The position numbers and the translations under genes were made by a program. A stretch of 64,000 nucleotides of DNA from an uncultured virus (IMG/VR IMGVR_UViG_3300029305_007917). Lineage: Duplodnaviria; Heunggongvirae; Uroviricota; Caudoviricetes. The notes under the pieces are model-generated. The model was not told the origin of the DNA. It worked only from the letters and a program-made list of their open reading frames with translations, and searched no databases. The DNA is taken from the IMG/VR virus record IMGVR_UViG_3300029305_007917, one strand, 5' to 3'. Of the stretch, positions 25,955-55,488 are shown in pieces. Position 1 is the first letter of the stretch, and each line of letters opens with the position of its first letter.

Positions 25955-26009
25955 AACCACCCCTCCTCCATACCTGAAAATCAAAATCAAATATGAAAGG
26001 ATGACTACA

Positions 26010-26531: not shown

Positions 26532-26557
26532 GAGCATCCCATTGGGGTGCTTTTTTT
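26532..26557 (+). terminator. Intrinsic terminator after the moron operon
   Basis: AGCATCCC-ATTG-GGGTGCT then T-run. Confidence 0.65.
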
Positions 26558-26579
26558 GTGTCACTTTTTAGGAGGAAAA

Positions 26580-28774: not shown

Positions 28775-28777
28775 TTT

Positions 28778-30379: not shown

Positions 30380-30391
30380 TGAGGTGACAGA

Positions 30392-32435: not shown

Positions 32436-32449
32436 TGGAGGAAAAATCT

Positions 32450-33643: not shown

Positions 33644-33660
33644 TTAAAGGCGGTGGCAAT

Positions 33661-33972: not shown

Positions 33973-33976
33973 TCCT

Positions 33977-34736: not shown

Positions 34737-35080
34737 GCATCCTTGAAGAACTCAATGCGATACTCGATTCAATTGGCATTCCCGTTGAAACGGGTGTCTT
34801 TTCTGACAAACCCCCACTGTACTATGTAGTTCTTACTCCTCTTTCAGATGATTTTGATGTTTTTGGTGACAACAAGCCTACAGTTGAAACTTGTGAGGTT
34901 AGATTATCACTTTTCAATCACGGAAATTACATTGAAAGAAAGAACTCCATTGTACAAAAACTTCTTGATAACGATTTCACCATTACCGGTAGAACTTATG
35001 TCGGTTTTGAGCCTGAAAATGGTTATCACAATTATGCTATTGATGTAGCAAAAAATTACGAAATTAAGGAGGACACTTAA
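34733..35080 (+). CDS. Putative tail terminator
   Basis: Size and position before the major tail protein. Confidence 0.65.
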   Translation: MSILEELNAILDSIGIPVETGVFSDKPPLYYVVLTPLSDDFDVFGDNKPTVETCEVRLSLFNHGNYIERKNSIVQKLLDNDFTITGRTYVGFEPENGYHNYAIDVAKNYEIKEDT

Positions 35081-35081
35081 T

Positions 35082-35666
35082 ATGGCAACTATTGGTCTTG
35101 ACAAACTCTTCTATGCGAAAATCACAGAAGATGAACTTGGCAATGAAACCTATGGCACACCTACACAGTTAGCAAAAGCTATGAAAGCGGATTTAACAAT
35201 TGAACTTGCTGAAGCCTCTCTTTTTGCTGATGATGGTGAGGCTGAAAATGTCAAAGCATTCAAGAGTGGTAAGCTCTCCCTTGGTATTGATGACATTGGT
35301 ATGGAAGCTGCAAAGGATTTAACCGGTGCTTCTGTGGATAACAACGGTGTACTTATTTCAACAGAAAACGACCTTGCTCCGTATGTAGCTATTGGTTTCA
35401 GAGCATTAAAGAGTAATGGCAAGTACAGATATTTTTGGCTTTATCGTGTCAAATTTGCTGCCCCTTCAACTAACCTTCAAACCAAGGGTGACAGCATTAC
35501 TTTCCAGACACCTACTATTGAAGGTACTGTAATGAGAAGAAACAAGGCTGATGGTGCGGGTAAACATCCGTGGAAAGCTGAAGTTACTGAAGGTACAACC
35601 GGAGTAACTGAAAACACCATCACATCTTGGTTCACATCAGTTTACGAACCTATTTATTCAGCTTAA
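35082..35666 (+). CDS. Major tail protein (phi13 family)
   Basis: IGLDKLFYA, LFADDG, PYVAIGFRA, YFWLYRVKF. Confidence 0.88.
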   Translation: MATIGLDKLFYAKITEDELGNETYGTPTQLAKAMKADLTIELAEASLFADDGEAENVKAFKSGKLSLGIDDIGMEAAKDLTGASVDNNGVLISTENDLAPYVAIGFRALKSNGKYRYFWLYRVKFAAPSTNLQTKGDSITFQTPTIEGTVMRRNKADGAGKHPWKAEVTEGTTGVTENTITSWFTSVYEPIYSA

Positions 35667-35684
35667 TTTAGGAGGACATTATCA

Positions 35685-36098
35685 ATGAAATCACATATTC
35701 CTACTGTCGAGGTTCAGGCAGAAGAAAGAAAAGCCGTAATTACAATTGGCGGTAAAGATTATGATTTGCTTTTAACAACCCTTGCAACAAAGCAAATCGG
35801 CAAGAGATATGGTGGTCTTCAGAACCTTGGTGAAACACTTATGAACAGTGAACACATCGAAGAAGCCATTGACGAAATCGTATGGCTCATTACTCTTTTA
35901 GCTAATCAGCCTATTATGATTCACAACCTTTGGAATGAAGAGAAACTTCCTCTTTTAACCGAAGAAATCGTATTCCTTATGACATCGCCTTATGATTTGG
36001 CAGAATACAAAAATGCCATTATGGAAGCAATGTATAAGGGTGCAAAGAGAAATGTTGTCAGTGAGGAAACTGACGAAAAAAACTCACCGGACGAGTAA
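35685..36098 (+). CDS. Tail assembly chaperone (gpG-like)
   Basis: Between major tail and tape measure; slippery A AAA AAC near the 3' end. Confidence 0.8.
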   Translation: MKSHIPTVEVQAEERKAVITIGGKDYDLLLTTLATKQIGKRYGGLQNLGETLMNSEHIEEAIDEIVWLITLLANQPIMIHNLWNEEKLPLLTEEIVFLMTSPYDLAEYKNAIMEAMYKGAKRNVVSEETDEKNSPDE

Positions 36099-36286
36099 GC
36101 GATGATGAAACGTTTGCTCGTCTTATTTTTTACGGTGTTACTCTTCTTCATCGACATGAGCGTGAAGTGTTATTAATGCCGTTAGGTGCTTTGCTCGACC
36201 AAGTTGAAGTGTATAAACAGTGGCATGGTTTAGCAAAGCCATTCAGGGAATTGTTCATTGATGATGTCATTCCATCCGATATTTAG
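36077..36286 (+). CDS. -1 frameshift extension of the tail chaperone (gpGT-like)
   Basis: Heptamer AAAAAAC 36077-36083; -1 frame open (LTGRVSDDETFARLIFYG...IPSDI*) to TAG 36286. Confidence 0.75.
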   Translation, partial: KKLTGRVSDDETFARLIFYGVTLLHRHEREVLLMPLGALLDQVEVYKQWHGLAKPFRELFIDDVIPSDI

Positions 36287-36297
36287 GAGGTGGTGAC

Positions 36298-38610: not shown

Positions 38611-39306
38611 ATGAACTCATTTACTTTTAACGGAATATCTTCAGCAGAGTTTGGTTTGTACATTTCTGAAAAGAAAATCTACTCCATTCCTGCGAGAGAT
38701 GTTACCTTTCATTCTGTTCCCGGAAGAAGCGGTGATGTTCTAATTGACAATGACCGATATGAAAATGTCATCGTTTCCTATACAGTGGGAATTAAAGATA
38801 TAAAGAAAAACATTCGTAAAATTAAATCGTGGTTATGCAAACCCGGTTATTTGAAACTTACTGATACATATCAACCCACATACTTTAGATATGCGTGTTT
38901 TTGCTCTTCTGTTGATGTGGTTGAAATGCTCGAAAATGTAGGTACAGCTCAAATATCATTCAACTGCAAACCCTATATGTATTTGAATTCCGGGCAAACA
39001 ACACGAACCATTACAAGCAAGGCTACAATCAATAATCCTACAGATTTTGATTCAGAACCTCTTTTACGAATTTATGGCAGTGGTGCGGTTACTCTCACCA
39101 TCAACAATAAATCGTACAATTTCACACAAGTAAGCCCATATCTTTCTTGTGACACAGAATTGATGAACTGCTCATATGGTTCTATCCTTAAAAACCATGT
39201 GATTAATTTTACTGAATTCCCGGTGTTTGAACCGGGTGAAAACAACATCTCTTTTACAGGTACTGTTACACGAATAATCATCACCCCCCGTTGGCGTACT
39301 CTTTAA
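38611..39306 (+). CDS. Distal tail protein (Dit)
   Basis: FTFNGISS, VPGRSGD, FNCKPY, PRWRTL; follows TMP. Confidence 0.82.
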   Translation: MNSFTFNGISSAEFGLYISEKKIYSIPARDVTFHSVPGRSGDVLIDNDRYENVIVSYTVGIKDIKKNIRKIKSWLCKPGYLKLTDTYQPTYFRYACFCSSVDVVEMLENVGTAQISFNCKPYMYLNSGQTTRTITSKATINNPTDFDSEPLLRIYGSGAVTLTINNKSYNFTQVSPYLSCDTELMNCSYGSILKNHVINFTEFPVFEPGENNISFTGTVTRIIITPRWRTL

Positions 39307-39318
39307 GGAGGTGTTCAA

Positions 39319-41862
39319 ATGATACCAATTCTTAAAAATAAAAATAATGGTACAACAATCGGGTTTCTTAAGGATGTCATTTCTTGCATCGTTACAGAAG
39401 AGCGAAATGGTGTATATGAGTTGCTAATGACATACCCATTAACCGGTCAACACGCAAGTCGAATAACTACAGGCAGATGCATTCTTGCAAAACCCAATGA
39501 CACAACAGACAATCAAATATTTCAAATTTACGAGGTTACAAAGCCGATTTCAGGCGTTTTTACAGTAAAGGCGGAACATATCTCTTATTTACTTTCAAGC
39601 ATTCCTACGGGCGATGTGGCGCTTTCAGGAGCAACCTCATCAACTGCTATGGCATTACTTCTTGGAAATGCAGTAAACAAGGGGTCTTTTGGTACTGTTT
39701 GGAGTGATATTTCCACGACTAACAAATTTGTTTTTAATGTTGGCTCTGTTCGTGCTGCTTTGGGTGGCACGGAAGGTTCGATATTAGATGTTTATGGTGG
39801 CGAGTTTGAATTTGATAATTACACTATCAAGCTCCATAAAAATCGTGGTACTGATACCGGTGTTATCATCGCTTATCGAAAAAATCTTACAGATTTGAAG
39901 CTGACAATGTCGATGGAAAGCTCATATACAGCTCTCCACCCATATTGCTATAAAGATGAGGTTTTAACTTTACTGACGGAACGAGTAATTTCGGTTACAA
40001 ATTCATCAGGTATTCCAACAAAAACCCTTATAAAAGACTTCACTTCCTTCTTTGAAAATGACGAGGAAATCACTGAAACTGCTCTTCGTACCAAAGCTAA
40101 TGCTTGGCTTGAAGAAAACGATATTAATTCACCTACCATTAACCTTTCAGTTGCTTTTCAACATTTATGGCAATCGCCTGAATATGCTGATTTGCAGGCT
40201 CTTGAAAAAGTGTCCCTTTGCGATACTGTTAGCGTTTGGCACAGCGAACTTGATATCTACATCAAGTCAAAAGTTGTGAAGACAGTATATGACAGTGTCG
40301 GTGAGAAATACGACAAAATTGAACTTGGTAGCGTAAGACCCAACTTTGCGGATACTGTAAAGCAGACAGAAAAGGATATCGAAAAAATCAAGAATAATCA
40401 AAACAACTACCACTCGCAGATTACTGAAGAATACCTCGCAGCCATCGATGCCGCCACTAAAGCCATAACCGGTAACAGTGGTGGCTATGTTGTTTTGCAT
40501 CCTTCAAAAAACCCACAGGAACTTCTCATTATGAATCAACCTAATATAGACAGTGCGACAAAAATGTGGAGATTCAATTTGAGTGGTTTCGGTTACTCAT
40601 CAAATGGTTATGACGGCCCCTTCAAAACTGCCATCACGATGAATGGTCAAATCAACGCTGACTTCATCACTACAGGTACTTTAACAGCAAACATCATTCG
40701 TGCCGGTGTTTTGATGGCGGCTGATGGTTCGTCATACTTCGACCTTGATTCCGGTTACTTTTCAACATCTTACGCAAACATCACCGGTGGTTACATCTCA
40801 ATCGGTTCAACAGACTATCGAACAGAAATTATTGCAGGTAACATCCGTGTTTTCCTTGCTTCGGTTTCAACTACAGTCCCTATTGGTGGTCTTGTTCCTT
40901 TGGGAACATCAACTACGAAACGAATGGCAGTGTACTGTGGTGAGGAATCCGATATGAACGGCGTAAGTATTTCTTATAAGAATGCAGATAATTCAGGATT
41001 TACAAATATAGCCGTGTTTGATAAGGATGCCATCGAGCTTTGGTACCCTACACAAATTGTAGGTAACACCACTGTTTTTGGTAATCTTTATGTTTATGAC
41101 ACCGGTGTCATTAAGGCAGCAAAAAACATCTATACAAACGAGGCTTCAGCTGACCTTTACGGTTCTATTTACCATTACCGAACTAAAAAGTTTGATGGCA
41201 CAAATAACTACACGGCATATACAGTTTTTGGCTGTGGCAATCCTGAAAGTCGTCCTTCGGTAGCACTTCAAGTAAACAACTATGGTAATACAACAGCTAT
41301 TGCCCGCCTTGATATTTTTCAAAGCTATGGTGAAGCGATGATTGGTATTAAAGGCTACAGTAATGGCACATGGTCAAAGATGCTTGAGTTGGGTGCTTCC
41401 TTGTGGTGGGGTGGCAACATCTACTCGAAAGGTGTCCTTGTTACTTCTTCCGAAGAAATCAAGGAAAACATCCAAGAGTCAACGGATGTTTTGGATTTGT
41501 TCCGAAACTCAAAAATCTACTCATATAACTACATCCCGGATGAAGAAAATATCATCACGGATGGTGTTGTTGTAGAAGCAGAACAATTTTATTCAAATGG
41601 TGTTGGTGAAGGAACAACACTTGAAGAAGAAAACAAGCACATTCCTTATACCGGTCAAACCTATGAAAAATCAGCAGTAGAACCCGTAACAGAAAGTTTT
41701 GGTTTTGTCATTGAACGAGAAACACCTCCACAGGTTATCTCTGCAGACGGAAAACACATCAATATGTATTCAATGACATCAATCGTATGGAAAGGCATCC
41801 AAGAACTGCTCACACGTATTGAGAGTCTTGAAGATGAACTTTCACAATTGAAAGGAGTCTAA
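39319..41862 (+). CDS. Tail-associated endopeptidase/spike (Tal) with C-terminal S74-like chaperone domain
   Basis: VTEERNGVYEL, GGEFEFDN, INADFITTGTL, SSEEIKENI...WKGIQEL. Confidence 0.82.
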   Translation: MIPILKNKNNGTTIGFLKDVISCIVTEERNGVYELLMTYPLTGQHASRITTGRCILAKPNDTTDNQIFQIYEVTKPISGVFTVKAEHISYLLSSIPTGDVALSGATSSTAMALLLGNAVNKGSFGTVWSDISTTNKFVFNVGSVRAALGGTEGSILDVYGGEFEFDNYTIKLHKNRGTDTGVIIAYRKNLTDLKLTMSMESSYTALHPYCYKDEVLTLLTERVISVTNSSGIPTKTLIKDFTSFFENDEEITETALRTKANAWLEENDINSPTINLSVAFQHLWQSPEYADLQALEKVSLCDTVSVWHSELDIYIKSKVVKTVYDSVGEKYDKIELGSVRPNFADTVKQTEKDIEKIKNNQNNYHSQITEEYLAAIDAATKAITGNSGGYVVLHPSKNPQELLIMNQPNIDSATKMWRFNLSGFGYSSNGYDGPFKTAITMNGQINADFITTGTLTANIIRAGVLMAADGSSYFDLDSGYFSTSYANITGGYISIGSTDYRTEIIAGNIRVFLASVSTTVPIGGLVPLGTSTTKRMAVYCGEESDMNGVSISYKNADNSGFTNIAVFDKDAIELWYPTQIVGNTTVFGNLYVYDTGVIKAAKNIYTNEASADLYGSIYHYRTKKFDGTNNYTAYTVFGCGNPESRPSVALQVNNYGNTTAIARLDIFQSYGEAMIGIKGYSNGTWSKMLELGASLWWGGNIYSKGVLVTSSEEIKENIQESTDVLDLFRNSKIYSYNYIPDEENIITDGVVVEAEQFYSNGVGEGTTLEEENKHIPYTGQTYEKSAVEPVTESFGFVIERETPPQVISADGKHINMYSMTSIVWKGIQELLTRIESLEDELSQLKGV

Positions 41863-41864
41863 CT

Positions 41865-41999
41865 ATGAAAGAAAAGCTCGAAAAAAAGCTCACTGAATTG
41901 GCACAGCAGAAGGAACAGATTGTTGCACAGCTCAATGCCATTATGGGAGCAGAACAGGTAATCAAATCTATGCTTGAGGAGGAAAACAAAGATGAATGA
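41865..41999 (+). CDS. 44-aa coiled-coil phage protein
   Basis: AAGGAG RBS; MKEKLEKKLTELAQQKEQIVAQLNAI... Confidence 0.55.
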   Translation: MKEKLEKKLTELAQQKEQIVAQLNAIMGAEQVIKSMLEEENKDE

Positions 42000-42306
42000 T
42001 GTAACAACACTCCTCATTGCCCTTGGCGTTCCTACAGCCTTTACAGGCTTCTGTTTTTGGCTTTTGAAACGCCACATCGACAAGAAAGAGCAAATTCGTG
42101 AAGAACACGAAAGAGCTCGTAAACAGAATGAATTGCTTCTCGTACAGGGAGTATTTGCTTCCATTGGTCTTGGTGAAGCTACAGCATTAGCTCTCAAGAA
42201 TGGTCATACCAATGGCGAGACAGAAGCTGCCTTGGAATATGCAAGAAACATAAAACATCAGCAGAAAAACTTCCTTACGGAGCAAGGCATCAATAACATC
42301 TATTAG
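41992..42306 (+). CDS. Membrane protein of lysis cassette (holin-like)
   Basis: N-terminal TM helix; GGAGG RBS; upstream of holin. Confidence 0.6.
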   Translation: MNDVTTLLIALGVPTAFTGFCFWLLKRHIDKKEQIREEHERARKQNELLLVQGVFASIGLGEATALALKNGHTNGETEAALEYARNIKHQQKNFLTEQGINNIY

Positions 42307-42317
42307 GAGGCAAAACT

Positions 42318-42668
42318 ATGAACTTCTTTGAAACATTTATCACCTCATATGGTGAAGCAATCCTTTATGCAGTACTTACTGCTATTGCCGGTTTTCTTGG
42401 CTCACAGCTTAAGAGAATCTATGAAAAATACATCAACGACAAAACCAAAAAGGCTGTTGTTGAAACCTGCGTAAAAGCCGTGGAACAGTTATATAAAGAC
42501 CTTCACGGAGCAGACAAGCTCGAAGTAGCAAAAGAAAATATTCTCGCTATGCTTGAAGAAAAAGGACTTACTATTTCAGACCTTGAGATGGATTTACTTA
42601 TTGAATCTTGTGTAGCGGAATTCAATATTAATTTTCAGAAAGAGGTAGTTATTGATGAGCAAAACTAA
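42318..42668 (+). CDS. Holin (LL-H-like)
   Basis: One TM helix, VKAVEQ..., GADK, IESCV. Confidence 0.78.
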   Translation: MNFFETFITSYGEAILYAVLTAIAGFLGSQLKRIYEKYINDKTKKAVVETCVKAVEQLYKDLHGADKLEVAKENILAMLEEKGLTISDLEMDLLIESCVAEFNINFQKEVVIDEQN

Positions 42669-43587
42669 CATTGGACTCGTTGAGTATGCAAAGGCTCAAC
42701 TTGGTAAGCCATATTGGTATGGCACATTCGGTCAGCTTTCCACACCTTCACTTTACACACAGAAGAAGAAACAGTACCCCAAGTACTATGGTTGGTCTTA
42801 CAAGCAGTCAGAACTTAACATCAAAGTTCACGATTGTGTTGGTCTTATTAAGGGTTACCTTTGGTGCGACAGCCCCACAGACAAAACTCCTACATATAAG
42901 TCTGCACAAGATGTTTCTGCAACCGGAATGCTTAACAGATGTAAGGAAAAGGGTTCTATCGGAACTATGCCTGACATCCCCGGTATTCTTGTTTTTCTTC
43001 CCGGTCACGTTGGCGTTTACATCGGTGATGGCTATGTAGTTGAAGCTCATGGTCACACAAAGGGTGTAATCAAAACCAAACTCAAAGGACGTGGTTGGAA
43101 GAATTGGGGTAAATGCCCGTGGATTACCTACGAAGAAGTAAAGAAACCTACAACAACTACAAAACCTACTACAACGACACCTACAACGAATAACTCTTCA
43201 GCTCCGAAGGTTATCGCAACGGGTGTCGTTAATTGTTACTCTCTTAACTTCCGTAATGGTGCAGGTACTAACAACACCAAAATCCTCAAGGTTCTCAAGA
43301 GAAACACAAAAGTTTCAATCATCGGTAAAGTATCAAATTGGTACAGAGTTATCGTTGATGGCACTACCGGTTATGTTAAGGCTTCTTACATCACTTGGAA
43401 TGGCAAGGTTACCGGTGGCACTGTTAACCTTCGTAAGGGTCCGTCAACTGCAAAATCTGTTATTGCTGTTCTTACAAAAGGAACTGCTGTAACGGTTATT
43501 GATTCAACAGGCTCTTGGTACAAAATCAAGGCAACCTATAAGGGTAAAACTTATACAGGCTATATGTCAGCCACATATATAGCTTAA
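42655..43587 (+). CDS. Endolysin: NlpC/P60-like peptidase plus two SH3b domains
   Basis: DCVGLIKG, GHVGVYIG, Thr-rich linker, two LN.R.G...WY...GY repeats. Confidence 0.85.
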   Translation: MSKTNIGLVEYAKAQLGKPYWYGTFGQLSTPSLYTQKKKQYPKYYGWSYKQSELNIKVHDCVGLIKGYLWCDSPTDKTPTYKSAQDVSATGMLNRCKEKGSIGTMPDIPGILVFLPGHVGVYIGDGYVVEAHGHTKGVIKTKLKGRGWKNWGKCPWITYEEVKKPTTTTKPTTTTPTTNNSSAPKVIATGVVNCYSLNFRNGAGTNNTKILKVLKRNTKVSIIGKVSNWYRVIVDGTTGYVKASYITWNGKVTGGTVNLRKGPSTAKSVIAVLTKGTAVTVIDSTGSWYKIKATYKGKTYTGYMSATYIA

Positions 43588-43598
43588 TTTTTGGGGAG

Positions 43599-43976
43599 GT
43601 GGCTGTGTTGACAAACAAAGAAAATGAAATAATCCGTTTAAGAAGAAATGGTGAATCATTAAAGGACATAGCCACCTTCGTAAATATGCCCCTCGGTTCG
43701 GTTAAGTCTTTCATCGCAAGAAATGATATTCACCCTTATACCGAGGGGTATTGCAAACAGTGTGGTGCAAAACTTACATATACTGACCACAAAAAGAAAA
43801 GGCAGTTCTGTTCGGTAAACTGCAAGGATAAATGGTGGAATACCAACAGAACTTACACTTTCACTTGTAAACACTGTAACAAGGTTTTTATCAAGCATAG
43901 AAATGATAAGCCTTTATACTGTTCACACGCCTGCTACATTGCAGACAGATTTGGAGGGAAAAATGAACATTCATAA
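43599..43976 (+). CDS. HTH plus zinc-finger protein preceding the recombinases
   Basis: SLKDIA...SVKSF; CKQC, FCSVNC, CKHC, YCSHAC. Confidence 0.75.
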   Translation: MAVLTNKENEIIRLRRNGESLKDIATFVNMPLGSVKSFIARNDIHPYTEGYCKQCGAKLTYTDHKKKRQFCSVNCKDKWWNTNRTYTFTCKHCNKVFIKHRNDKPLYCSHACYIADRFGGKNEHS

Positions 43977-44154
43977 CAACTCAAATATTGAAAAAAGAAT
44001 GTGTCTCACAGATGCACAATTCAGAAATGAAAAGAGATATAATCTTGGCTTGAGAATGGCAAATAATCTCCTTGATAAAGGCTTAATTTCCGAGCAAGAT
44101 TACCTCGAAATTAACGATAAATTGGCGCAAAAATATACCCCTATCTTTGGTTAA
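43963..44154 (+). CDS. Small SHOCT-like recombinase-associated protein
   Basis: LLDKGLISEQDY...KYTP; GGAGG RBS. Confidence 0.65.
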   Translation: MNIHNNSNIEKRMCLTDAQFRNEKRYNLGLRMANNLLDKGLISEQDYLEINDKLAQKYTPIFG

Positions 44155-44224
44155 TTTATGCTCATAAAATCGTTGATAAATTGTATCAACAGAGTTAATA
44201 TGTACCACAGAAAGGAGTGATACA

Positions 44225-45514
44225 ATGGCTACAAAAATGACAGTCATTCAACCTAAAAAGATAAAAGAGTTCAAAGAACTTCGTGTTTGTGCATATGCTC
44301 GTGTTTCAGCAAAAAATGACGATATGCTTCGTTCTTTAGGTTCACAGGTTGCCTATTATATTGACTACATTTCTTCTCACCCCGGTTGGAAGTTTGTGGA
44401 AGTTTTTCACGACAAGCCTACAACCGGAACAAAAGAAGAAAGACCTGAATTCTTAAGAATGATTGAAATGTGTAGGCGTGGTGAAATTGATATGATTATA
44501 ACTAAATCATTATCTCGTTTTGCACGTAACACAGTAACAACATTAACTTACACAAGAGAGTTGAAATCTTTAGGTGTTGATGTATTCTTTGAAAATGAAA
44601 ACATCCATACGATGAGTGCGGATGGTGAGGTCGTTCTCACTTGCTATGCTTCGTTTGCACAGGATGAAAGTTTATCCGTAAGTGAAAACTGCAAATGGAG
44701 AATCAAGAAACGATTTGAAAAAGGTGAAATGACTGACTTTAGAATTTTAGGTTATGATTGGGTTGACCATCAACTCTACATAAACCCTAAAGAAGCTGAA
44801 ATCATTAAACGCATTTATCGTGAATACCTTGAAGGTAAAGGCTTTCAGGGTATTGCCAATGGACTCAACAAGGATGGGTTGCGAACCAAGGATAATAACA
44901 ACTTTGGTTATACTTCCATTCGTTGCATTCTTATAAATGAAAAATATGTCGGTGACTTAATTCTTCAAAAATCTTTTTATGACAATCACCTTACAAAAAA
45001 GAAAATCGTAAACAAAGGTGAGCGTGACCGGTACTTCATCAAAGATAACCACGAGCCTATAATCGACCGTGAGACCTTTGAGAAAGTACAACAGGAAATA
45101 CAAGCACGAAGTAAGAAAGCTCCTAAAACTCAATCAGCTCCCTGCATTTTTACAAGTTTACTCACTTGTGGTATTTGTGGAAAGAACTATCGCAAGAAAA
45201 TAAATAGTAAAAAACTTGTATGGATGTGTCCAACATATAATCACATAGGTAAATCAGCTTGTGATTCTCAAATGATACGAGATGACATTCTGAAAGAAAC
45301 TTCTGCCAAAGCACTCGGTATGCCGGAATTCGATGAAGAAGTTTTCAAAAAGAAAGTCAAAGGTATTCAGGTTTTGAGAAATAACAGGCTGATTTATTTT
45401 TTCACCGATGGCACATCAAAAGAGATGATATGGAAACAAAAATCTCGTGCCGATGCTTGGACTCCTGAAATGAAAGAAAAACAATCAAAACTTATTTTAG
45501 AAAGGAATTTATAA
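44225..45514 (+). CDS. Large serine recombinase 1
   Basis: AYARVS, TKSLSRFARN, recombinase domain, CGICG zinc ribbon. Confidence 0.93.
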   Translation: MATKMTVIQPKKIKEFKELRVCAYARVSAKNDDMLRSLGSQVAYYIDYISSHPGWKFVEVFHDKPTTGTKEERPEFLRMIEMCRRGEIDMIITKSLSRFARNTVTTLTYTRELKSLGVDVFFENENIHTMSADGEVVLTCYASFAQDESLSVSENCKWRIKKRFEKGEMTDFRILGYDWVDHQLYINPKEAEIIKRIYREYLEGKGFQGIANGLNKDGLRTKDNNNFGYTSIRCILINEKYVGDLILQKSFYDNHLTKKKIVNKGERDRYFIKDNHEPIIDRETFEKVQQEIQARSKKAPKTQSAPCIFTSLLTCGICGKNYRKKINSKKLVWMCPTYNHIGKSACDSQMIRDDILKETSAKALGMPEFDEEVFKKKVKGIQVLRNNRLIYFFTDGTSKEMIWKQKSRADAWTPEMKEKQSKLILERNL

Positions 45515-45517
45515 TTT

Positions 45518-45991
45518 ATGAATCAAACTATTAACAACACAACTAATGAAAACAAAATCACAAAGGTAGCGGCATATTTCTGCTATTATGCTGACCCTAC
45601 AAACCCATCAAAACAGTATGATGAGCAGTACGAATACTACAAGGAAAAAATCACAAGTAACCCTGACTACGAATTTACGGGCATATATGCTGATGAAACT
45701 TCAACTAATACCCGAGAGAACTTTGACGCAATGGTTAAGGATGCACTCGATGGAAAGATTGACCTTATTATAATGAAATCAGTTTCTCGTCTCGGTAAGT
45801 GTACAGTTGAAAACCTCAATACGATTAGAATTCTTCGAGATAAGGGCGTTGACATTTATTTTGAAAATCAGAACTTCAGTACATTAGGTCCAAATAGTGA
45901 GCTAATACTTTCGATTTATGGTTCTTTTGCGGCAGAAGAAAGAGAAAAAGCTGAAGAAGAGGAATTTCGCAGAACTCACTCTACAAACTAA
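45518..45991 (+). CDS. Serine recombinase catalytic-domain-only protein lacking the catalytic serine
   Basis: AAYFCYYAD in place of AYARVSTD; retains KSVSRLG and GVDIYFE. Confidence 0.75.
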   Translation: MNQTINNTTNENKITKVAAYFCYYADPTNPSKQYDEQYEYYKEKITSNPDYEFTGIYADETSTNTRENFDAMVKDALDGKIDLIIMKSVSRLGKCTVENLNTIRILRDKGVDIYFENQNFSTLGPNSELILSIYGSFAAEEREKAEEEEFRRTHSTN

Positions 45992-46012
45992 AGAAAAGGA
46001 CGGAATGATGTT

Positions 46013-47578
46013 ATGGCAAAAGTAACCATTATCCCTGCATTTGCAAAGGAAGAAAACGCAGTAGCAAAAAAGAAATTAAAAGTTGCGGCATACGCTCGTG
46101 TTTCAACTGACACAGAAGAGCAGCTGAATAGCTACACTGCACAGTGCGAATATTATAAAGATTTAATTACAAACAATCCTGATTATGAATTTGTTGGGAT
46201 TTACACTGACGAAGGTATTACCGGTACTTGTCTTAAGAAGCGAGATGGATTCAATCGTATGGTCGAGGATGCCTTGAATGGTAAAATTGATAAAATCTAC
46301 ATAAAGACAATTTCACGATTAGGAAGAAACACTGTTGATAACTTAAGTGCAATAAGAGCTCTCCGAGCAAAAGGCGTCGATATATATTTTGAAATTCAAG
46401 GTATAAATACCTTGACAATGTCAAGTGAGTTGCTTGTTACAATCTTCTCTTCTCTTGCACAAGATGAAAGTCGTTCCATAAGTGACAATGTTGCGTGGGG
46501 TAAACGAAGAAAATTTGAACGTGGTGAGTTCTCACTTCCTTACAGCAAGTTCCTCGGATACAAGAAAGGCCCCGATGGTAAGCCTGAAATCGTTGAGAAA
46601 GAAGCTGAAATCATAAGACGAATTTATAAGCTCTTTTTACAGGGTTACACACCGAGTAACATCGCACACTTGCTTACCGATGAAAAAATACCAACCCCCG
46701 GTGGTAAAGAAAAATGGTCAACATCAACCGTAACATCCATTCTGCAGAATGAAAAATACTGTGGTTGTGCTTTGCTTCAAAAATGTTATGTTCCGGACTT
46801 CCTTACACATAAAAGTGTTCCTAACGATGGTACATTAAAACAGTATTTCATTGAAGACAGTCACCCTGCAATTATTCGCAAAGAAGTATTTGAATTGGTA
46901 CAAGGTGAATTTGAAAAACGCAAAGACCAAAAGCGTATGGTTCGTAGCAATGTATTCAGTGGCAAGATATTCTGTGCTGATTGTGGTGGCTTGTATGGTG
47001 CAAAGTTATGGCATTCTACTGACAAATACAAAAAGACAATATTCCAATGCAACAACAAATTCAAGAACAAGCAGAAATGCACCACAGGTAATATTTCAGA
47101 AGAAACTATAAAAATTCTTTTCTTAAAAGCCGTAACAAACATCCTTGCAAATGACGATTATATGGATGTAAAGGAAATGATACTTGAGCAGTTTGCAGAT
47201 GACCCTAAATTGGAAGATACCCTTTTAACCTTGCAGGCACAGGCAGCGAACCTTACACAGCAAGTTGAAATGCTTATCAACAGTTCTGCAAAGACCGGTA
47301 ATGCACAAGTATTCCAAAGACAGTATGAATTATTGAAAACTGACCACGAAAAGGTTGTTTTGAAAATTGAAACAACTGAAAATGCAATAACGGAAAAACG
47401 CAGAAAACATGTTACAATTTCCGAGTTTTTTAATACACTTGAAGAAATCCATAACACTGAACTTTCATTCAGTGAAGACCTATGGACAAGCCTTGTTGAA
47501 AAGGCTGTGGTTGGTAAGAACACAATAACATTCATTTTCAAAGACGGAAGTGAAGAAACACTCCCAATCAAAATTTAA
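46013..47578 (+). CDS. Large serine recombinase 2
   Basis: AYARVSTD, SRLGRN, CADCG zinc ribbon, coiled coil. Confidence 0.93.
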   Translation: MAKVTIIPAFAKEENAVAKKKLKVAAYARVSTDTEEQLNSYTAQCEYYKDLITNNPDYEFVGIYTDEGITGTCLKKRDGFNRMVEDALNGKIDKIYIKTISRLGRNTVDNLSAIRALRAKGVDIYFEIQGINTLTMSSELLVTIFSSLAQDESRSISDNVAWGKRRKFERGEFSLPYSKFLGYKKGPDGKPEIVEKEAEIIRRIYKLFLQGYTPSNIAHLLTDEKIPTPGGKEKWSTSTVTSILQNEKYCGCALLQKCYVPDFLTHKSVPNDGTLKQYFIEDSHPAIIRKEVFELVQGEFEKRKDQKRMVRSNVFSGKIFCADCGGLYGAKLWHSTDKYKKTIFQCNNKFKNKQKCTTGNISEETIKILFLKAVTNILANDDYMDVKEMILEQFADDPKLEDTLLTLQAQAANLTQQVEMLINSSAKTGNAQVFQRQYELLKTDHEKVVLKIETTENAITEKRRKHVTISEFFNTLEEIHNTELSFSEDLWTSLVEKAVVGKNTITFIFKDGSEETLPIKI

Positions 47579-47595: not shown

Positions 47596-47636
47596 CCCCA
47601 CAGGAATTTTATGTAGTTCTTGTGGGGCATTTTTTG
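47596..47636. terminator. Terminator between convergent operons
   Basis: CCCCACAGGAAT...GTTCTTGTGGGG then T-run. Confidence 0.7.
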
Positions 47637-47679: not shown

Positions 47680-48585
47680 TTAATCGTTTTCACCGTTATC
47701 ATCGATACAACTATCTTCATCAAAATCATCAAGGCTGAACTGCTCTTCAGCTAAACGCAGCTCTTCCTCGTATTCTTCAGGGAAGCCTGTACGCTTTTTT
47801 CGTCTGTTAGAATATAGGGTTGACCACTTAAGTGCATTCTTCATTTTTTTGTTATAAACAGTAAGTAATGCCTCTGCGTATCCCATTGAACCTGACTGCC
47901 TTTCACGGGCGTTCCTAATAATCTCCTTGAGTGAAACTACACTTAACTTTTCTTTGAACAGCTCATCATTCAAACTGTCACCATAAGCATTTACAAGTGT
48001 TGCTATGCCTTTGAGCATATTTGCAGAAAAGGAATTAGCATCTCCTTCCCAAGTACCAATGCACAATCGCATAGTTCTATCCAAACAATGGTATCCGTAC
48101 CTATCCATAATTTCTTCCAAAGAAGCTATTGCACAAATACCACCGGGTTTTTTACCATTACTGATTTTCAATCCGTATGACTCGACAAGAGCTTTAATCA
48201 TCAACTGCTTATCGTTTCCGGCTTCGATGTTTGCCATAAAAATTTCATAAGGTAAAAGTGCCTTCGTGTACTTGAGCTGATTCGCAAAAATATCTGCTTC
48301 TTCTTCGTAATCCAAATCATCGTAAACCATACACCAAACAGGAGTATCACGAGAGCCTGAAACAAGAGCTACAATTTCAATGGTGTGCTGACCATTAAAA
48401 ACATAATTAACTCCGTTTCTGCGACTTACTTTTACAGGGTTGATTTGGTATAAATCAAAATTATCTGCTGCTTTTTGCACATGTTTTACAGACAGATTTC
48501 TTTGATAATCTTGGTTTGAAACAAGGTTTTTTATAGGTATTTGTTCAAAGTGTACCTGTGGAACGAATTCTGAATAATCTATCAT
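47680..48585 (-). CDS. ParB/DndB-like (DUF6551-like) protein
   Basis: YQRNL...FNGQHT, a variant of DGQHR. Confidence 0.7.
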   Translation of the reverse strand: MIDYSEFVPQVHFEQIPIKNLVSNQDYQRNLSVKHVQKAADNFDLYQINPVKVSRRNGVNYVFNGQHTIEIVALVSGSRDTPVWCMVYDDLDYEEEADIFANQLKYTKALLPYEIFMANIEAGNDKQLMIKALVESYGLKISNGKKPGGICAIASLEEIMDRYGYHCLDRTMRLCIGTWEGDANSFSANMLKGIATLVNAYGDSLNDELFKEKLSVVSLKEIIRNARERQSGSMGYAEALLTVYNKKMKNALKWSTLYSNRRKKRTGFPEEYEEELRLAEEQFSLDDFDEDSCIDDNGEND

Positions 48586-49499
48586 TTTTCTTTACCTCTC
48601 AATGCATCCTGCATTCCTTCTGCTGCACTATTCAAGTCATATAACGCCATAAATGTATTGATTCGTGCATTATCACTTACTTCTGTTAAATTAACATTTT
48701 TCTTGACCCTTTCAATTGAACTTATCCACGAGGGTATGGTTAAACACAAACTCGATAATTCTGCATCCGGGTCATATTCGGGCATATTTTTTATTGCAAT
48801 TGTCGGTTTTTCGGATTGCATTTTTGATGCCCTTCTTGTTTTCGGAGGTGAAAATTCACCACGATGTTGCTTGAATTCCGAAAAGTCTTTCTTCTGTATA
48901 ACAAGATGTTCATACAGTTTTTTCAATTCTCTGTCTGTTAAACAAACCAATTCAGCAATGTTTTCTTGCGATATGAAAACCTTTCCTTCTAACAATGCAT
49001 CTGCAAGTTCCGGTAGGCTTTCACGAACGTGGTCAATGCCTATGGAATATAGGAAATACTTGTTCAATGTATTCCGTGAAAATTCATACTCAAGTGCCAT
49101 ATCAGTCATACTCTTTCCGTCACGGTCTTTTTCATCTTTCGTGGCTCTTGGTGGAATTTTACCTTTAGGAGCTTCATCCTTTTCATACGAATATCGCTTA
49201 CCGATGCAATACCATCGTGTTTCTTTTGGTAGGTCTTCACGCATAGCTTGTTTTTCACAAATCCACGCCTTAACCTTTTCTTTGCAGAAATACTTCAGCT
49301 TGATGTAGCTTATGGGCAGGTCATAATCTTTTGCAATCATATACTCATCGTAGCCGTCCACAATGTGGTTCTTCCATATTGTGACTTCCGCATAACCTTT
49401 ATTCAAAACAAGGTCTTCAAGTTGATTTCTTGCTTTAGTTTTTCTTGGAAACATCAACCATAAAAATTCATTAGTTATTTTAACTTCAAAATCATTCAT
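48582..49499 (-). CDS. ParB-like protein with degenerate nucleotide-binding motif and HTH
   Basis: IWKNHIVDGYDEY, WICEKQAMREDL, MALEYEFSRNTL. Confidence 0.6.
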   Translation of the reverse strand: MNDFEVKITNEFLWLMFPRKTKARNQLEDLVLNKGYAEVTIWKNHIVDGYDEYMIAKDYDLPISYIKLKYFCKEKVKAWICEKQAMREDLPKETRWYCIGKRYSYEKDEAPKGKIPPRATKDEKDRDGKSMTDMALEYEFSRNTLNKYFLYSIGIDHVRESLPELADALLEGKVFISQENIAELVCLTDRELKKLYEHLVIQKKDFSEFKQHRGEFSPPKTRRASKMQSEKPTIAIKNMPEYDPDAELSSLCLTIPSWISSIERVKKNVNLTEVSDNARINTFMALYDLNSAAEGMQDALRGKEK

Positions 49500-49510
49500 T
49501 TTTCACACTC

Positions 49511-49855
49511 CTATACCACAGACTTTAGGTCAAACATAGCAACATTCTCTGATTCTACAATTTCACCTATCAGCTTGTAGTTCTTATTCTTATCCCAACC
49601 GGGACACACCTTTGCCAATGTTTCTATAAGGTTTTTACTGTAAAGTTCATAGGAAGAGTGTGCAGGTCTGCTCCAATCAATCTTATGCGCGAGTTTTGCT
49701 TTTTTACCTACAGGACGAATTGCAATAAACAAATCATCCGGGTTCACAAGAAGCTGAATATAATCAGGCTCACCCAATAAATGAAGGGTTTTCTTGTACA
49801 CCCTGATGCGACTCTTCTTTTGGTCTATCGAAATTAGTGCTGTTTTGTTTTTCAT
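49511..49855 (-). CDS. Hypothetical protein; minimal copy of the domain shared with the two upstream genes
   Basis: DYIQLLVNP...IAIRP...W...YKLIG...FDL; GAGG RBS. Confidence 0.75.
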   Translation of the reverse strand: MKNKTALISIDQKKSRIRVYKKTLHLLGEPDYIQLLVNPDDLFIAIRPVGKKAKLAHKIDWSRPAHSSYELYSKNLIETLAKVCPGWDKNKNYKLIGEIVESENVAMFDLKSVV

Positions 49856-50573
49856 CGGTTATTGCCTCACTTTCATTATTTGCATTTTGTGGTTCATCTT
49901 TAATACCGAAAACTGCATAGCCATCAAAAATATCAATTTGTAATTGTTTTTTATGCTCCTCAACCGGTAAGCCGAATTGATTCTGCCATTCAGCCGGAAA
50001 TACGGGTGTTCTTGTAGCCCTTGGTTTTCCGTCCTTGACAATAATCCTCTGAAAGATTTCCGGGGAATTCAAATCAAACACAAAGAGTCTTTCACCATTT
50101 GACTCAATCAGTTTGCCAAGCAATTTATATCGGTACTGTGGATTCCATTCCATCAATGACACAACCTTGGCAAAGAACATACGACAAGTGATTTGCTTTG
50201 GTTTCTTTTTACCCGTATTTCTGTTAATGCTACACCACAAAAACGAGTCTTTTTCATCTTCCTTACACGGACGCACAGCAAGTTTCTTCTCTATTGGGTT
50301 TACCAATATTTGAACATAATCTGCTTCTGGCACTTTCCTTATACATGCAGTATTCAGCGAAACCCTACAGTTATTAAAGGTGATGGATGGCTCAAACATA
50401 TGAGCAAAAAACTCACCCCTTACAACTTGATATCCGTCATAACTGAAAGCATCGTCACTTTCAATATCCGTAGGAGTTGCTTGGTTCTGAATACTCGTTA
50501 CTGTCACTTCCGTAGGTGACTGTTTCAATTCCGGATGATGGGTATCCATCAGTTGGTTCTTCTCTTCGTACAT
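49770..50573 (-). CDS. Hypothetical protein homologous to the C-terminal domain of the upstream recombinase
   Basis: CIRK...DYVQILVNPIEKKLAVRP...FDL...FPAEWQNQFG; GAGGT RBS. Confidence 0.8.
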   Translation of the reverse strand: MYEEKNQLMDTHHPELKQSPTEVTVTSIQNQATPTDIESDDAFSYDGYQVVRGEFFAHMFEPSITFNNCRVSLNTACIRKVPEADYVQILVNPIEKKLAVRPCKEDEKDSFLWCSINRNTGKKKPKQITCRMFFAKVVSLMEWNPQYRYKLLGKLIESNGERLFVFDLNSPEIFQRIIVKDGKPRATRTPVFPAEWQNQFGLPVEEHKKQLQIDIFDGYAVFGIKDEPQNANNESEAITDEKQNSTNFDRPKEESHQGVQENPSFIG

Positions 50574-52434
50574 AGTTCTGTTTTACCTCTTTTCTCATTT
50601 CTGCGATGATTTGGTCTATACTTTCTTTAATAACTGTGCCACTTGTTATATTGAGTTCAGCGTCAGTATATGGTTTGCCTGTCATATCAATATCCCAAGT
50701 TCCGTGTTTGGAATAATATTCCATCTCTATTTGTTGAGCTCTTCTGTAATAGTCAGTACCAAAATTATCTGCCCACTCCACCGGATAAGCACATACCGAT
50801 TTTTGAGTCGATACTATAGGCACTGCTTTTTCTTCATCAGTGTCTGTAGCGTTGTTTGGTATAAAGACTTCCGTTTCTGTCATATCGAACAGCAATACTG
50901 ACTCTGTGCCATTCTGCTTTCTTACACCGATTACTCGAATTTTGGAATCAGTACGCCAACCGAACATAGCAAAAAATGTCTGCAAAAATGCTGACCCTGA
51001 AATCTTCCTTGCTACAGTGCCTTCCGGTGCAACTCTTAACCACTTAATAGCATTACGATTACCTTTCTGTGATGGTCGCACGGCTAATGTTTTCTTGATA
51101 GGATGAATGAGCAATTCAACATATTCACAAGTGCCAAGTTTCCTTATGCATTCCATACCGAATACAACCTCTCTCATAGTGAAACTTGCATTTACTTTGA
51201 GTGGCGTATTGAAAAACTGCGACCTTGCAATTTCAAAGCCGCGAAGGTCAAAATCACCACTTTTTGCTTCAACTTGGTTATCTTCATTAGGTAGGTCAAT
51301 AACCCCGTCATAAACGCTCTCACAAGCCTTTATGTACTCATCAATAGTGAACCCTGCCCATCGCGGATTAACCGATATAAAGCCTTTTAACGCGCCATCC
51401 GGTATGACATGAAGTTCAGGCAAGAAACCCTTGCTACCACCATATTTTGCATTAGCGATTATCTTCTGAACTGCAATAAAGTCATCCCTTGAAATTATAG
51501 GCTCGTGGTGGTCACGTTTTCTGTACTGATTTCGGTCGTGATTGTTCTTCTTTGACTTGTGATTCAAGTAATTAGGTGTCCACGTTTTTCGAGCCAATAC
51601 ATCACCACAGTGTCTTTCATTTTGCAGAATTTGAAGAATTGATGTGGGATTCCATTGTGTATTGCCCTTCTTGGTTTTTCTTCCCAATTCAGTTAGTGTT
51701 TCAGCAATTTCTCGGCAGGTGTAACCATACAAATACATAAAGAAAATTAACCTAACTGTCTTTGCCTCATCTTCGTTGATTACAAGGTTTCCGTCCTCAT
51801 CGTGGTCATATCCCAATAAAACCGGGGTAAGGAAGATACCTCTTCTGAAACGCATTTCAACCGATGCATTCATAATTTCACTTTTGTTGTGACTTTCTTC
51901 TTGAGCAAGAGTTGAGATGAATGACAGGCTCATTTCACTGTTTGGATTGAGAGTGAATATATTCTCCGTTTCAAAGAAAACACCAATGGGTGGATTCATT
52001 GCTGCAAGTTCTCTCACATACCCAATACAGTCGATAACATTACGGGCAAAACGAGATACGCTTTTTGTAACAATTAAGTCGATTTTGTGTTCTTTACAAT
52101 CATTAATCATTTCAACAAATGCATCTCGGTGTTGCAATGATGTACCGGAAATACCTTCATCGGCATAAATCTTATACAGATTCCAACCGGGATGTCTGTC
52201 AACTACATCCAAGTAGTGGTTCTTCTGTAATTCATACGATGAGGTTTGCCTTGGGTCATCCGTTGAAACACGTGCATAAACACCGACTCGCTTTTCGTTA
52301 TTTTCATCATAAAAATCTTCCTGTGGATTGGCAGGAATGAAATCAAGCTCGTCAGGGTCAATGCCACGATAACGCTCACGAATTCGTTGCTTTTTCAACT
52401 CTGCTGCTGAAAGTTTTTGTTCGTTTTCTATCAC
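50461..52434 (-). CDS. Serine recombinase with atypical C-terminal domain (no zinc ribbon)
   Basis: VYARVSTD, TKSVSRFARN, recombinase domain to HEPIISR, then about 200 aa shared with downstream genes; AGGAGGT RBS. Confidence 0.92.
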   Translation of the reverse strand: MIENEQKLSAAELKKQRIRERYRGIDPDELDFIPANPQEDFYDENNEKRVGVYARVSTDDPRQTSSYELQKNHYLDVVDRHPGWNLYKIYADEGISGTSLQHRDAFVEMINDCKEHKIDLIVTKSVSRFARNVIDCIGYVRELAAMNPPIGVFFETENIFTLNPNSEMSLSFISTLAQEESHNKSEIMNASVEMRFRRGIFLTPVLLGYDHDEDGNLVINEDEAKTVRLIFFMYLYGYTCREIAETLTELGRKTKKGNTQWNPTSILQILQNERHCGDVLARKTWTPNYLNHKSKKNNHDRNQYRKRDHHEPIISRDDFIAVQKIIANAKYGGSKGFLPELHVIPDGALKGFISVNPRWAGFTIDEYIKACESVYDGVIDLPNEDNQVEAKSGDFDLRGFEIARSQFFNTPLKVNASFTMREVVFGMECIRKLGTCEYVELLIHPIKKTLAVRPSQKGNRNAIKWLRVAPEGTVARKISGSAFLQTFFAMFGWRTDSKIRVIGVRKQNGTESVLLFDMTETEVFIPNNATDTDEEKAVPIVSTQKSVCAYPVEWADNFGTDYYRRAQQIEMEYYSKHGTWDIDMTGKPYTDAELNITSGTVIKESIDQIIAEMRKEVKQNYVRREEPTDGYPSSGIETVTYGSDSNEYSEPSNSYGY

Positions 52435-52602: not shown

Positions 52603-53004
52603 GTGAAAACAGTGAAAATAGAGTATGCTGTTATAGGAAAACGCATCAAAAGATGCCGTAAGAAATTAGGGTACTCACAGGAGTCATTTGCAGAAATTCT
52701 TGAAATTTCAGCATCGCATTTGCATAAGATTGAAACGGGAATAAGATGCCCGAGTTTGGAAGTTCTCTATGCTATAGCACTTAAACTGAATGTGTCAGTT
52801 GACTATCTGCTGATGGGTTCAGAACAACAGAACCATAGTATCGTTGACTTCAACATTTCAAGTCTCTTGGGAGATTGCCGACCTTACGAACAAAAGGTTA
52901 TTCTGACAATTGCAAATCAACTGAAAATTGCGTTGATTGAAAATCGTCCGGATATCGAAGTACACCTAAAACAACATACAATCAATCGATTTCACCCATA
53001 TTAA
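52603..53004 (+). CDS. XRE-family transcriptional regulator
   Basis: YSQESFAEILEISASHLHKIETG..PSL; divergent from the recombinase operon. Confidence 0.85.
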   Translation: MKTVKIEYAVIGKRIKRCRKKLGYSQESFAEILEISASHLHKIETGIRCPSLEVLYAIALKLNVSVDYLLMGSEQQNHSIVDFNISSLLGDCRPYEQKVILTIANQLKIALIENRPDIEVHLKQHTINRFHPY

Positions 53005-55157: not shown

Positions 55158-55230
55158 TTGCAACCCACTATACTAAATTGCAACCTGCTCTCTGCATTTG
55201 CAACCTACCCCTTGAATTTGCAACCTACCC
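55158..55230. repeat. Four TTGCAACC motifs at exact 20-bp period
   Basis: Starts at 55158, 55178, 55198, 55218. Confidence 0.9.
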
Positions 55231-55385
55231 CAATTTTGTATCAAAGGTGGAGTAGTTAGACACCTAAGTACAACTTAGGTAATACAACCGAAATCCCTTG
55301 AAATATAGGGGTTTCGGTCTTTTTTATGCCTAAAAGCACTCTGAAAATGGGTGCTTTTTTCATTTTTTGTGTCACCGCAATATTT

Positions 55386-55469
55386 GTAATCGTTTACGGA
55401 GTATGGGTAATCGTTTACGGAGTATAGGTAATCGTTTACGGAGTACGGGTAATCGTTTACGGAGTATAA
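55386..55469. repeat. 4 x 21-bp tandem direct repeat GTAATCGTTTACGGAGTAYRR (iteron-like)
   Basis: Units at 55386, 55407, 55428, 55449; no spacers. Confidence 0.95.
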
Positions 55470-55488
55470 AACTATCGATACTTTGATA

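Follow-up and report, generated by a model that had tools for sequence, protein, structure and literature searches.

A conserved gene cassette combining a serine recombinase without a zinc ribbon, a repeated accessory domain and two ParB-like proteins

Serine integrases serve as the principal tools for inserting large pieces of DNA; in characterised members, a zinc ribbon provides outer site recognition, and a coiled coil governs site pairing and directionality. In accessory-protein resolvases and resolution-plus-ParB stability cassettes (Tn3/gamma-delta res, beta/Sin with HU, and RK2 parCBA), a recombinase is combined with architectural DNA-binding proteins at a site lying over the recombinase promoter. 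These resolvases are small serine recombinases with a helix-turn-helix (HTH); a recombinase domain, paralogous accessory domains in covalent linkage or a pair of ParB-CTPase-fold partners is not known from any of them. Here, we analysed a 64,000-nt stretch of DNA from an uncultured virus (IMG/VR record IMGVR_UViG_3300029305_007917; hereafter, the window), in which five minus-strand open reading frames (ORFs), labelled A to E, form a cassette headed by a serine recombinase (A). We found that the cassette is real and conserved, and that it is apparently undescribed, with an architecture outside known recombinase systems.

The closest described analogue is the Dehalococcoides ssrA-island module (dsiB, dsiA, recF-like, parB and mom), whose islands lie in tandem at the tmRNA end, with the island integrase DsiB overlapping attL (PMC3146451). 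In streptococci, 10 serine integrases without a Pfam zinc ribbon match have been reported (PMC4701971).

Conservation of the cassette and its recombinase

An earlier note on this DNA had proposed a five-gene recombinase system with a triplicated domain and two ParB-like genes, and the five ORFs and the divergent XRE gene were all located where it had placed them (Table 1). Relatives of B numbered 2,139 among 2,303 scored candidates, and B had 1,492 representatives at 50% clustering. The proposed order, A-B-C-D-E, was conserved in 53 of the 61 loci fetched with B (21 viral and 40 genome loci), a count in which the window element is represented by two copies, two pairs are near-duplicates, and three loci (L028, L059 and L061) have one broken gene. 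Among the other eight loci, three were cut by contig ends, three had no C, one had no D, and one had partial A and B. Only XRE, A to E, and a gene named Z were conserved neighbours; Z stands upstream of A in a six-gene clade and encodes a resolvase-like protein of ~200 amino acids with YIRY[FY] and no catalytic serine.

Hosts were mostly Bacillota, together with two Gastranaerophilales metagenome-assembled genomes (MAGs) and one Spirochaetes MAG. Of 150 genomes sampled from the class to which genome G002 belongs, 2 had the cassette. The carriers were Ca. Heliusvirales-type prophages, a conjugative element with MobL and a type IV coupling protein (G002), and other islands. The cassette follows a large serine recombinase (LSR) trio on the conjugative element of G002, and a convergent tyrosine integrase in locus L007. 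Twenty phage records matched B, of which 16 belong to the PV0364xx set; three of these 16 were inspected, and all three were labelled Ca. Heliusvirales.

Pfam matched A to Resolvase (residues 52–199) and Recombinase (221–327; PF07508), the former with the Y-x-R-x-S motif, as in large serine recombinases broadly defined. Zn_ribbon_recom (PF13408) was not matched, unlike in the neighbouring serine integrases R1 and R3, which both have a zinc ribbon match. Residues Y53, R55, V56, S57, R128, F129 and R131 were invariant in all 41 aligned rows, and A, judged from its sequence, is catalytically intact. CxxC occurred beyond residue 330 in one of the 41 rows and nowhere in the window A, and the model of A places a beta-rich domain after residue 410. 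A thus differs from canonical integrases with a recombinase domain, zinc ribbon domain and coiled coil (RD-ZD-CC), which have two Cys pairs and an embedded coiled coil. The Pfam matches, alignment rows and model together uphold the claim of the earlier note that A keeps the catalytic and recombinase domains without the zinc ribbon or coiled coil. A also scored below the NCBIfam cut-offs for the equivalogs of SCCmec Ccr (CcrB, 103.5 bits against 900; CcrC, 76.6 against 900), XisF (50.8 against 375) and IS607 (21.7 against 110). DUF4368, the C-terminal domain that marks multi-targeting TndX-like LSRs (PMC10083194), was not matched by A in Pfam up to E 1.

The overlaps of 113 and 86 bp that had been reported between A and B and between B and C are correct for the longest ORFs, and Shine-Dalgarno-like words precede those starts, but they are not conserved. 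With the start having the best ribosome-binding site, the median overlaps were 8 bp (55 loci) and 4 bp (53 loci), which ruled out long overlaps as a feature of the system; among the 55 loci, the 113-bp overlap was seen in the window element only. Database entries begin B at residue 23 (245 amino acids) and C at residue 19. Some sources call B an integrase; it has no catalytic domain.

The repeated domain and the ParB-like partners

The C-terminal repeat domain of A (A-CTD), B and C are homologous: none of 2000 shuffles matched any of the three pair scores (z = 31, 9 and 16), and hhalign gave probabilities of 100% for B/A-CTD (E 7e-44), 98.6% for B/C and 98.4% for A-CTD/C. Both the shuffles and the profile–profile alignment therefore bear out the homology of the three segments. 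The three had no match in Pfam, PHROGs, NCBIfam or PADLOC, and by these searches the repeat is a new, unnamed domain family, ~200 amino acids long in A. Lys/Arg columns were conserved in all three copies, which fits DNA binding by the domain.

The model of B (pLDDT 83, pTM 0.70) shows two beta-alpha-beta-beta units. In the widest structural search, MraZ (Z 3.5, rmsd 3.5, 86 aligned) shared the top rank with a chain unrelated to it, followed by B3 domains (Z 2.6 for RAV1, rmsd 4.0, 99 aligned; and Z 2.3) and the viral protein C56 (Z 2.2); all these Z values are under the trustworthy level. A Foldseek search of the PDB found nothing at E 0.001, a search of PDB sequences with the C profile gave nothing significant, and PCNA and clamp matches in the Foldseek PDB search (TM 0.22 or less) were dismissed as noise. 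The earlier note had likened the repeat to an AbrB-type swapped hairpin. The two beta-alpha-beta-beta units and the first rank of MraZ agree with that label, but Z was 3.5 at best and the two halves of the domain were unlike in sequence in an internal-repeat test; the label is weakly supported by the models and serves as a lead only. Since each domain already contains both units, the modelled domain would need no partner to fold.

Prediction of a complex between A-CTD and B, the pair folded, scored 0.66, compared with 0.00 for the best control. In a benchmark, the 0.66 mark was attained by 116 of 157 solved pairs and by 2 of 215 mismatched pairs. Contact agreement among the runs was at least 84%, and the partner pLDDT was at least 68. 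The predicted interface sets the arm of A (residues 394–413) on the core of B (88–95 and 128–136), an N-terminal arm joining the sheet of the next subunit. The proposed hetero-oligomerisation is thus backed, by prediction, for the A-CTD/B contact, and A-CTD is predicted to bind B via the arm. The arm motif was found in 43 of 44 A-CTD rows and 69 of 94 B rows, and in none of 49 C rows. We infer a head-to-tail chain, A to B to C, in which C may act as the cap because it has no arm.

The range of the modelled domain may exceed the cassette, as a structural search of BFVD returned uncharacterised proteins only, among them phage proteins of 110–130 amino acids that share the B/C core fold (Lactococcus KSY1 Gp105, E 9e-5). 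Longer fusions of the C profile were looked for and none was found, which is weak evidence. The apparent fusions of B in P0243–P0246, P0251 and P0241 have near-identical B parts behind unrelated N-termini and are probable misassemblies.

Of the two genes taken as ParB-like in the earlier note, E is ParB-fold by direct matches: DUF6551 in Pfam (6e-33), the ParB-like phrog_1033 (4e-14) and, weakly, TIGR04172. It has the N-terminal ParB-like domain with nucleotide-binding motifs of the ParB-CTPase fold, and the motifs YQR and GQH (DGQHR-type) are invariant. D appears ParB_N-like from its relatives: the window D is degenerate and has no Pfam or PHROG match, Pfam ParB was matched in none of 49 D rows, and the putative ParB_N identity comes from the L007 copy (Atlas 0.96 to a 98% ParB_N cluster). 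The nucleotide-binding motif (GxxR) of D was intact in 34 of the 49 copies; the window D reads DGYDEY, compared with DGHNRY in most relatives, and judged from this the window copy is a derived member of the family. Profile searches of PDB sequences with D and E gave nothing significant, and a profile comparison of D with E detected no homology. PADLOC gave no defence match for A, B, C or E and one hit of 0.017 for D.

Within cassette loci, a 31-bp palindrome (GAGGTT-N7-AAATG-N7-AACCTC) had 18 hits, 17 of which lay in the linker codons of D or within 300 bp after E (shuffles: 3, 1 and 0). It was present in 20 of the 34 loci with an intact D motif and in none of the 15 with a degenerate D, although the E tree explains this degeneracy with 4 changes, at least 2 of them forced, and so with few independent losses rather than 15. 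Since the palindrome accompanies intact and never degenerate D, its distribution suggests a candidate parS-like loading site of D. A generic palindrome score computed for the linker did not reach significance (p 0.08). When IMG/VR was scanned for exact copies of the 31-bp pattern, 23 loci were found, 2 of which are further cassettes with the site directly after E. Well-formed 31-bp palindromes in viral contigs without a cassette within 4 kb (L065, L066, L070, L075, L078, L081, L083 and L084) are probably sites of related ParB-like proteins.

Another palindrome, AACCACAGGT-N10-ACCTGTGGTT, is located in the region upstream of the cassette's first gene and immediately precedes a TATAAT-like word. 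Its 10-bp spacer scored at least 12 in 27 of 47 loci; among eight odd spacers, the highest count was 15 of 47. This even symmetry would allow a serine crossover.

Proposed role, attachment sites and host element

The reading we prefer, tentatively and at somewhat short of even confidence, is that the cassette is an XRE-controlled, accessory-dependent resolvase that, together with a ParB module, would act on copies of the element that have been excised or lie in tandem. It would be a second, self-contained recombination-and-maintenance module near the ends of Bacillota integrative elements, in which A would work resolvase-like with its architectural proteins encoded alongside. A-CTD would pass its arm to B, B would pass its arm to C, and the armless C would cap the chain. 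This basic chain would bind and bend DNA, giving the synaptic geometry that normally comes from the coiled coil. Crossover would occur at the even-spaced palindrome over the operon promoter, so that A would also autoregulate; D would load at its own palindrome and, with E, mark the excised or tandemly repeated element. Multimers would thereby be resolved and the circle kept, with XRE switching the operon. The conserved order, the invariant catalytic residues, the varied carrier elements, the A-CTD/B prediction and the co-variation of D with its site support this reading. So do the conserved Lys/Arg columns, the frequency of the 10-bp spacer in the promoter palindrome, the convergent canonical integrase near E in part of the loci, and att arms, with an outer motif like that of the LI integrase, beside R-type integrases that have no cassette in the examined sequence. 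The further claim that a capped A-B-C chain replaces the zinc ribbon and coiled coil, with a D clamp loaded at its palindrome and nucleotide-binding E deciding which sites synapse, we regard as doubtful; if true, ParB-fold nucleotide switches would gate how a site-specific recombinase chooses its partner and direction, in a system spread through gut prophages and conjugative elements.

Several observations weigh against the resolvase reading. The window copy combines a degenerate D with the lack of a 31-bp site and has no scoring promoter palindrome. Genes of the cassette are missing in some loci (C in 3, D in 1), and 21 of the 23 viral loci carry the 31-bp pattern without a cassette within 4 kb, from which it follows that the site family is wider than the cassette. 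With a fixed consensus, the promoter palindrome had the 10-bp spacer in 18 of 42 loci, other spacers in 12 and a score below threshold in 12, and it may simply be the XRE operator. The A/B prediction score could also reflect a generic interface between paralogues. ParA was not seen among the neighbours scanned (a subset of flank genes), which would leave partition without a motor. At neither palindrome did we see a recombination product, breakpoint or empty site, and a breakpoint search between related loci gave no shared boundary. Finally, attP-type junctions stand upstream of A, at a distance of 2.8 kb in the window, 4.7 kb in L029 and 0.66 kb in L033; no other integrase was detected in 10 of the 18 loci flanked by 6 kb or more on each side; and in genome G005, a 17-kb att-bounded unit (ssrA to an internal junction) contains no site-specific recombinase besides A in tblastn searches that used R1, R3 and three tyrosine integrases as queries.

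These last three observations favour another reading, in which A-B-C is an alternative integrase/excisase at a tRNA-CCA attachment (att) site family. The chain, standing in for the zinc ribbon, would read the outer 9-bp motif or the flanking repeat arrays, A without a coiled coil would recombine attL with attR or tandem junctions, and D and E would gate direction. Repeat arrays on both sides of the junction also agree with it, as does the directionality that coiled coils enforce in canonical integrases (PMC3783163). We nevertheless consider it rather unlikely, if worth serious weight. A clear outward arm stands upstream of A in only 3 cassette loci, the other scan hits being low-scoring and scattered. 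No such arm occurs in 160 kb of G002, whose A is ~80% identical in the catalytic half, and the G005 unit, which is full of insertion sequence (IS) elements, may be what a deletion left behind. Such arms are also present next to R-type integrases where the examined sequence shows no cassette (L111, a 12-kb fragment; G023:C60, 17.7 kb).

The att site itself is a symmetric 52-bp sequence with a central CA, an architecture shared by L029/G005, L033/G023:C58 and L111, and contigs of three of four runs link a tRNA 3' end to window position 55261. The outward arm directly follows the CCA of tRNA-Tyr, tRNA-Ala, tRNA-Met and tmRNA (ARAGORN calls) and of five more tRNA-like ends read by eye. The family with the arm TAAGTAC-N7-TTGATACAA, whose crossover is the CA within the CCA ends of a variety of tRNAs and of tmRNA, includes window 55236–55287, L122, L121, L138, L141, L120, L146, L147, L136 and L137; the pattern resembles a relaxed targeting of tRNA ends by serine integrases of the R type, and the family is a useful finding on its own. 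Since its members are also found next to ordinary zinc-ribbon integrases that have no cassette close by, the primary integrase of the prophage is probably not the cassette. The outer 9-mer, TTTTGTATC, agrees with the LI integrase ZD motif, TTTAGTATC, in 8 of its 9 bases but lies 3 bp farther outward (PMC3783163), and this likeness counts toward R1/R3, since A has no domain to read a ZD motif. In a 5-bp attB shift test, the expected offset was best in 3 of 8 tRNA-side arms. On balance, use of the att site by R1/R3 is favoured.

Scans that started from the att site added little: two viral patterns gave only the window element and one unrelated hit, the metagenome scan gave 0, and among the 10 hits of a further scan, L111 alone was clearly an att site. 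No convincing arm was found in eleven Heliusvirales records, whose ends appear trimmed to gene boundaries. In L044 (G027:C25:23216), an att arm is fused into A at codons MYLYGY, truncating A; the local sequence is tRNA T-loop-like, and the insertion point may be a secondary target. Positions 55262–55366 of the window are highly multi-copy in gut metagenomes (summed depth up to ~320), and in two runs the sequence continues into CRISPR-repeat-like sequence. A fixed tRNA target beside E was rejected, as ARAGORN tRNAs occurred in 7 of 59 loci, mostly as arrays. Arrays of 6 to 29 tRNA genes lie directly downstream of E at L017:4228-9999, L056:5358-10168, L043:7822-8337 and L013/L041:13423-14159.

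The prophage that hosts the cassette ends in R1–R3, which is probably its own integrase and which the earlier note had left out of account, and the cassette is convergent on this trio. The degenerate catalytic motif of R2 parallels the dead Z gene of the six-gene clade. Across phage records, 147 matched R3 and at most 20 matched B, so most such phages are without the cassette, and integrase pair or triplet modules mostly work without it. The element in genome G006 runs in the order tRNA-Tyr, restriction genes, phage, integrase pair, cassette and XRE. Restriction modules at both ends of the window are paralogous (1–2214 and 56688–58901, 90%; 5594–7013 and 62082–63501, 93%). They are LlaJI-type (1–7013 and 56419–64000), 90–93% identical in parts, with different methylases, and the ImmA-like gene of the right-hand one is broken by a TatD-like ORF. 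In run X7, the right-hand module runs on into window position 7013, which implies a unit of about 56.5 kb, tandem or circular. A full S-adenosylmethionine synthetase gene lies at 20322–21467, beside prophage methylases.

Table 1. Positions of the cassette, its host element and the putative attachment region in the window
Feature	Coordinates	Strand	Remarks
A, serine recombinase, 657 aa	50461..52434	-	Resolvase and Recombinase domains, catalytic Ser57
A-CTD, repeat domain, residues 379-600, including arm 394-413 (GFEIARSQFF)	50635..51300	-	predicted B contact
B, stand-alone repeat domain with arm and C-terminal FPxEW..FG extension	49770..50573	-	
C, minimal repeat core without arm	49511..49855	-	candidate chain cap
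D, ParB_N-like domain, HTH-like middle, conserved C-terminal block	48582..49499	-	nucleotide-binding motif degenerate here
E, DUF6551, ParB-fold protein	47680..48585	-	acidic tail
XRE regulator	52603..53004	+	divergent, travels with cassette
sigma-70-like promoter	52549-52577		
Terminator-like hairpin	47596..47627	.	between convergent E and R3
Ca. Heliusvirales-type prophage (DUF2800, Enc34 single-stranded DNA-binding protein, PolA, TerL, portal, capsid, tail, lysin)	9443..47578	+	gene-by-gene matches to PV036411 and PV036435
R1-R3, canonical serine integrase trio	44225..47578	+	zinc ribbons in R1 and R3
R1	44225-45514	+	
R2	45518-45991	+	degenerate catalytic motif
R3	46013-47578	+	
attP-type junction, TTGTATCAA-N7-GTAGTTA-GA-CA-CC-TAAGTAC-N7-GTAATACAA	55236..55287	+	crossover CA 55261-55262
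TTGCAACC repeats, 20-nt period	55158..55230	+	cassette side of junction; TGCACACCCC repeats at same place in G005
GTAATCGTT repeats, 21-nt period	55376..55480	+	far side of junction; same type after tRNA-Tyr, G006 left end

The widely varying flanks raise the idea that XRE and A to E are a compact mobile element, a heteromeric serine transposase/integrase whose D and E choose targets. Identity between related loci often stops just past XRE and at the E stop, genome G019 has at least three full-length copies, and the host range extends beyond Bacillota to the MAGs named above; moreover, run X7 has most of the cassette at ~97% identity without R1–R3 at 90%. Yet neither end shows a shared terminal sequence or target duplication, the position and orientation beside convergent integrases are stereotyped (gaps of 1–10 bp in some records), the X7 cassette is still linked to the same right-end region of the element, and the MAG assignments may be binning errors. 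We find this reading improbable. In L029 (12837–12950), a short remnant, RRVAAYARV, follows E on the same strand and is cut just before the catalytic serine codon. A 40-kb stretch of G046 (C1:700-40000, the L004 contig) contains the cassette among three or more integrase pairs and is a hotspot of accretion.

In a further alternative, the cassette modifies adjacent canonical integrases or regulates the element, with A (and the dead Z in one clade) entering mixed tetramers with R1/R3, or, in a variant, with the DNA-binding chain and ParB proteins forming an expression switch or defence with no independent recombination site. In the catalytic half, A shares 37–38% identity with R1 and R3, serine integrase modules of several genes that include a small partner have been described (PMC4701971 and PMC3146451), the weak fold matches of the repeat domain are transcription factors, and the cassette lies amid restriction-modification and other defence cargo. 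A convergent canonical integrase was found within 2.5 kb of E in 16 of 48 loci, however, which leaves 32 without one; the catalytic residues of A are invariant, and PADLOC returned no family match of note. We give this explanation little weight and retain the accessory-dependent resolvase as the tentative preference.

Comparison with described systems

In the open-access literature searched, we found no description of the cassette, subscription journals being mostly outside this coverage; together with the 53 of 61 conserved loci, this agrees with the statement of the earlier note that no characterised system has such an architecture. Recombinase, integrase, ParB and resolvase do not occur in the excerpted main text of the Heliusvirales paper (PMC11283538). 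Among the ParB-CTPase-fold DUF6551/DndB-like proteins (bioRxiv 10.1101/2025.10.10.680097), nucleotide binding has been reported for a phage DUF6551 protein, listed under both CTP and ATP. E shares DUF6551 with them; the excerpted text of that preprint does not mention recombinase, resolvase or integrase. The repeat domain may resemble the MraZ/AbrB/B3 cradle-loop barrels in its two beta-alpha-beta-beta units and in their top structural ranks, but at Z 3.5 or less and with no sequence match, and it has an extra N-terminal arm and C-terminal extension.

The cassette represents a large natural family of serine recombinases that dropped the zinc ribbon and coiled coil and kept catalysis. The family encodes paralogous accessory subunits and ParB-fold switches and gives DUF6551 a genetic context. 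It comes with three candidate DNA sites, and its mechanism is amenable to plasmid tests with five or six genes. It suggests a new multi-protein control of DNA rearrangement.

Compared with LI/A118-type RD-ZD-CC integrases, A shares the catalytic and recombinase domains and all catalytic residues, but where the zinc ribbon and coiled coil would be, it has an unnamed domain of ~200 amino acids, of which two partner genes encode further copies, and the two ParB-fold partners and XRE belong to the cassette (PMC3783163). The serine integrase pairs and triplets of streptococcal integrative and conjugative elements and of phi-m46.1/Phi1207.3-type prophages resemble R1–R3, not A (PMC4701971). With the Dehalococcoides module, the cassette shares a conserved multi-gene arrangement, a large serine recombinase, a small resolvase-like partner (compare Z) and a ParB-domain gene; that module differs in its RecF-, Mom- and polymerase-like genes and has no triplicated domain in the excerpted description (PMC3146451). 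The full Dehalococcoides set, namely dsiB over attL, dsiA, recF-like, parB, mom and a polymerase-domain gene, was not found in the cassette, which usually stands beside a separate canonical integrase, with A 0.66–4.7 kb from the att-type junction where one was seen.

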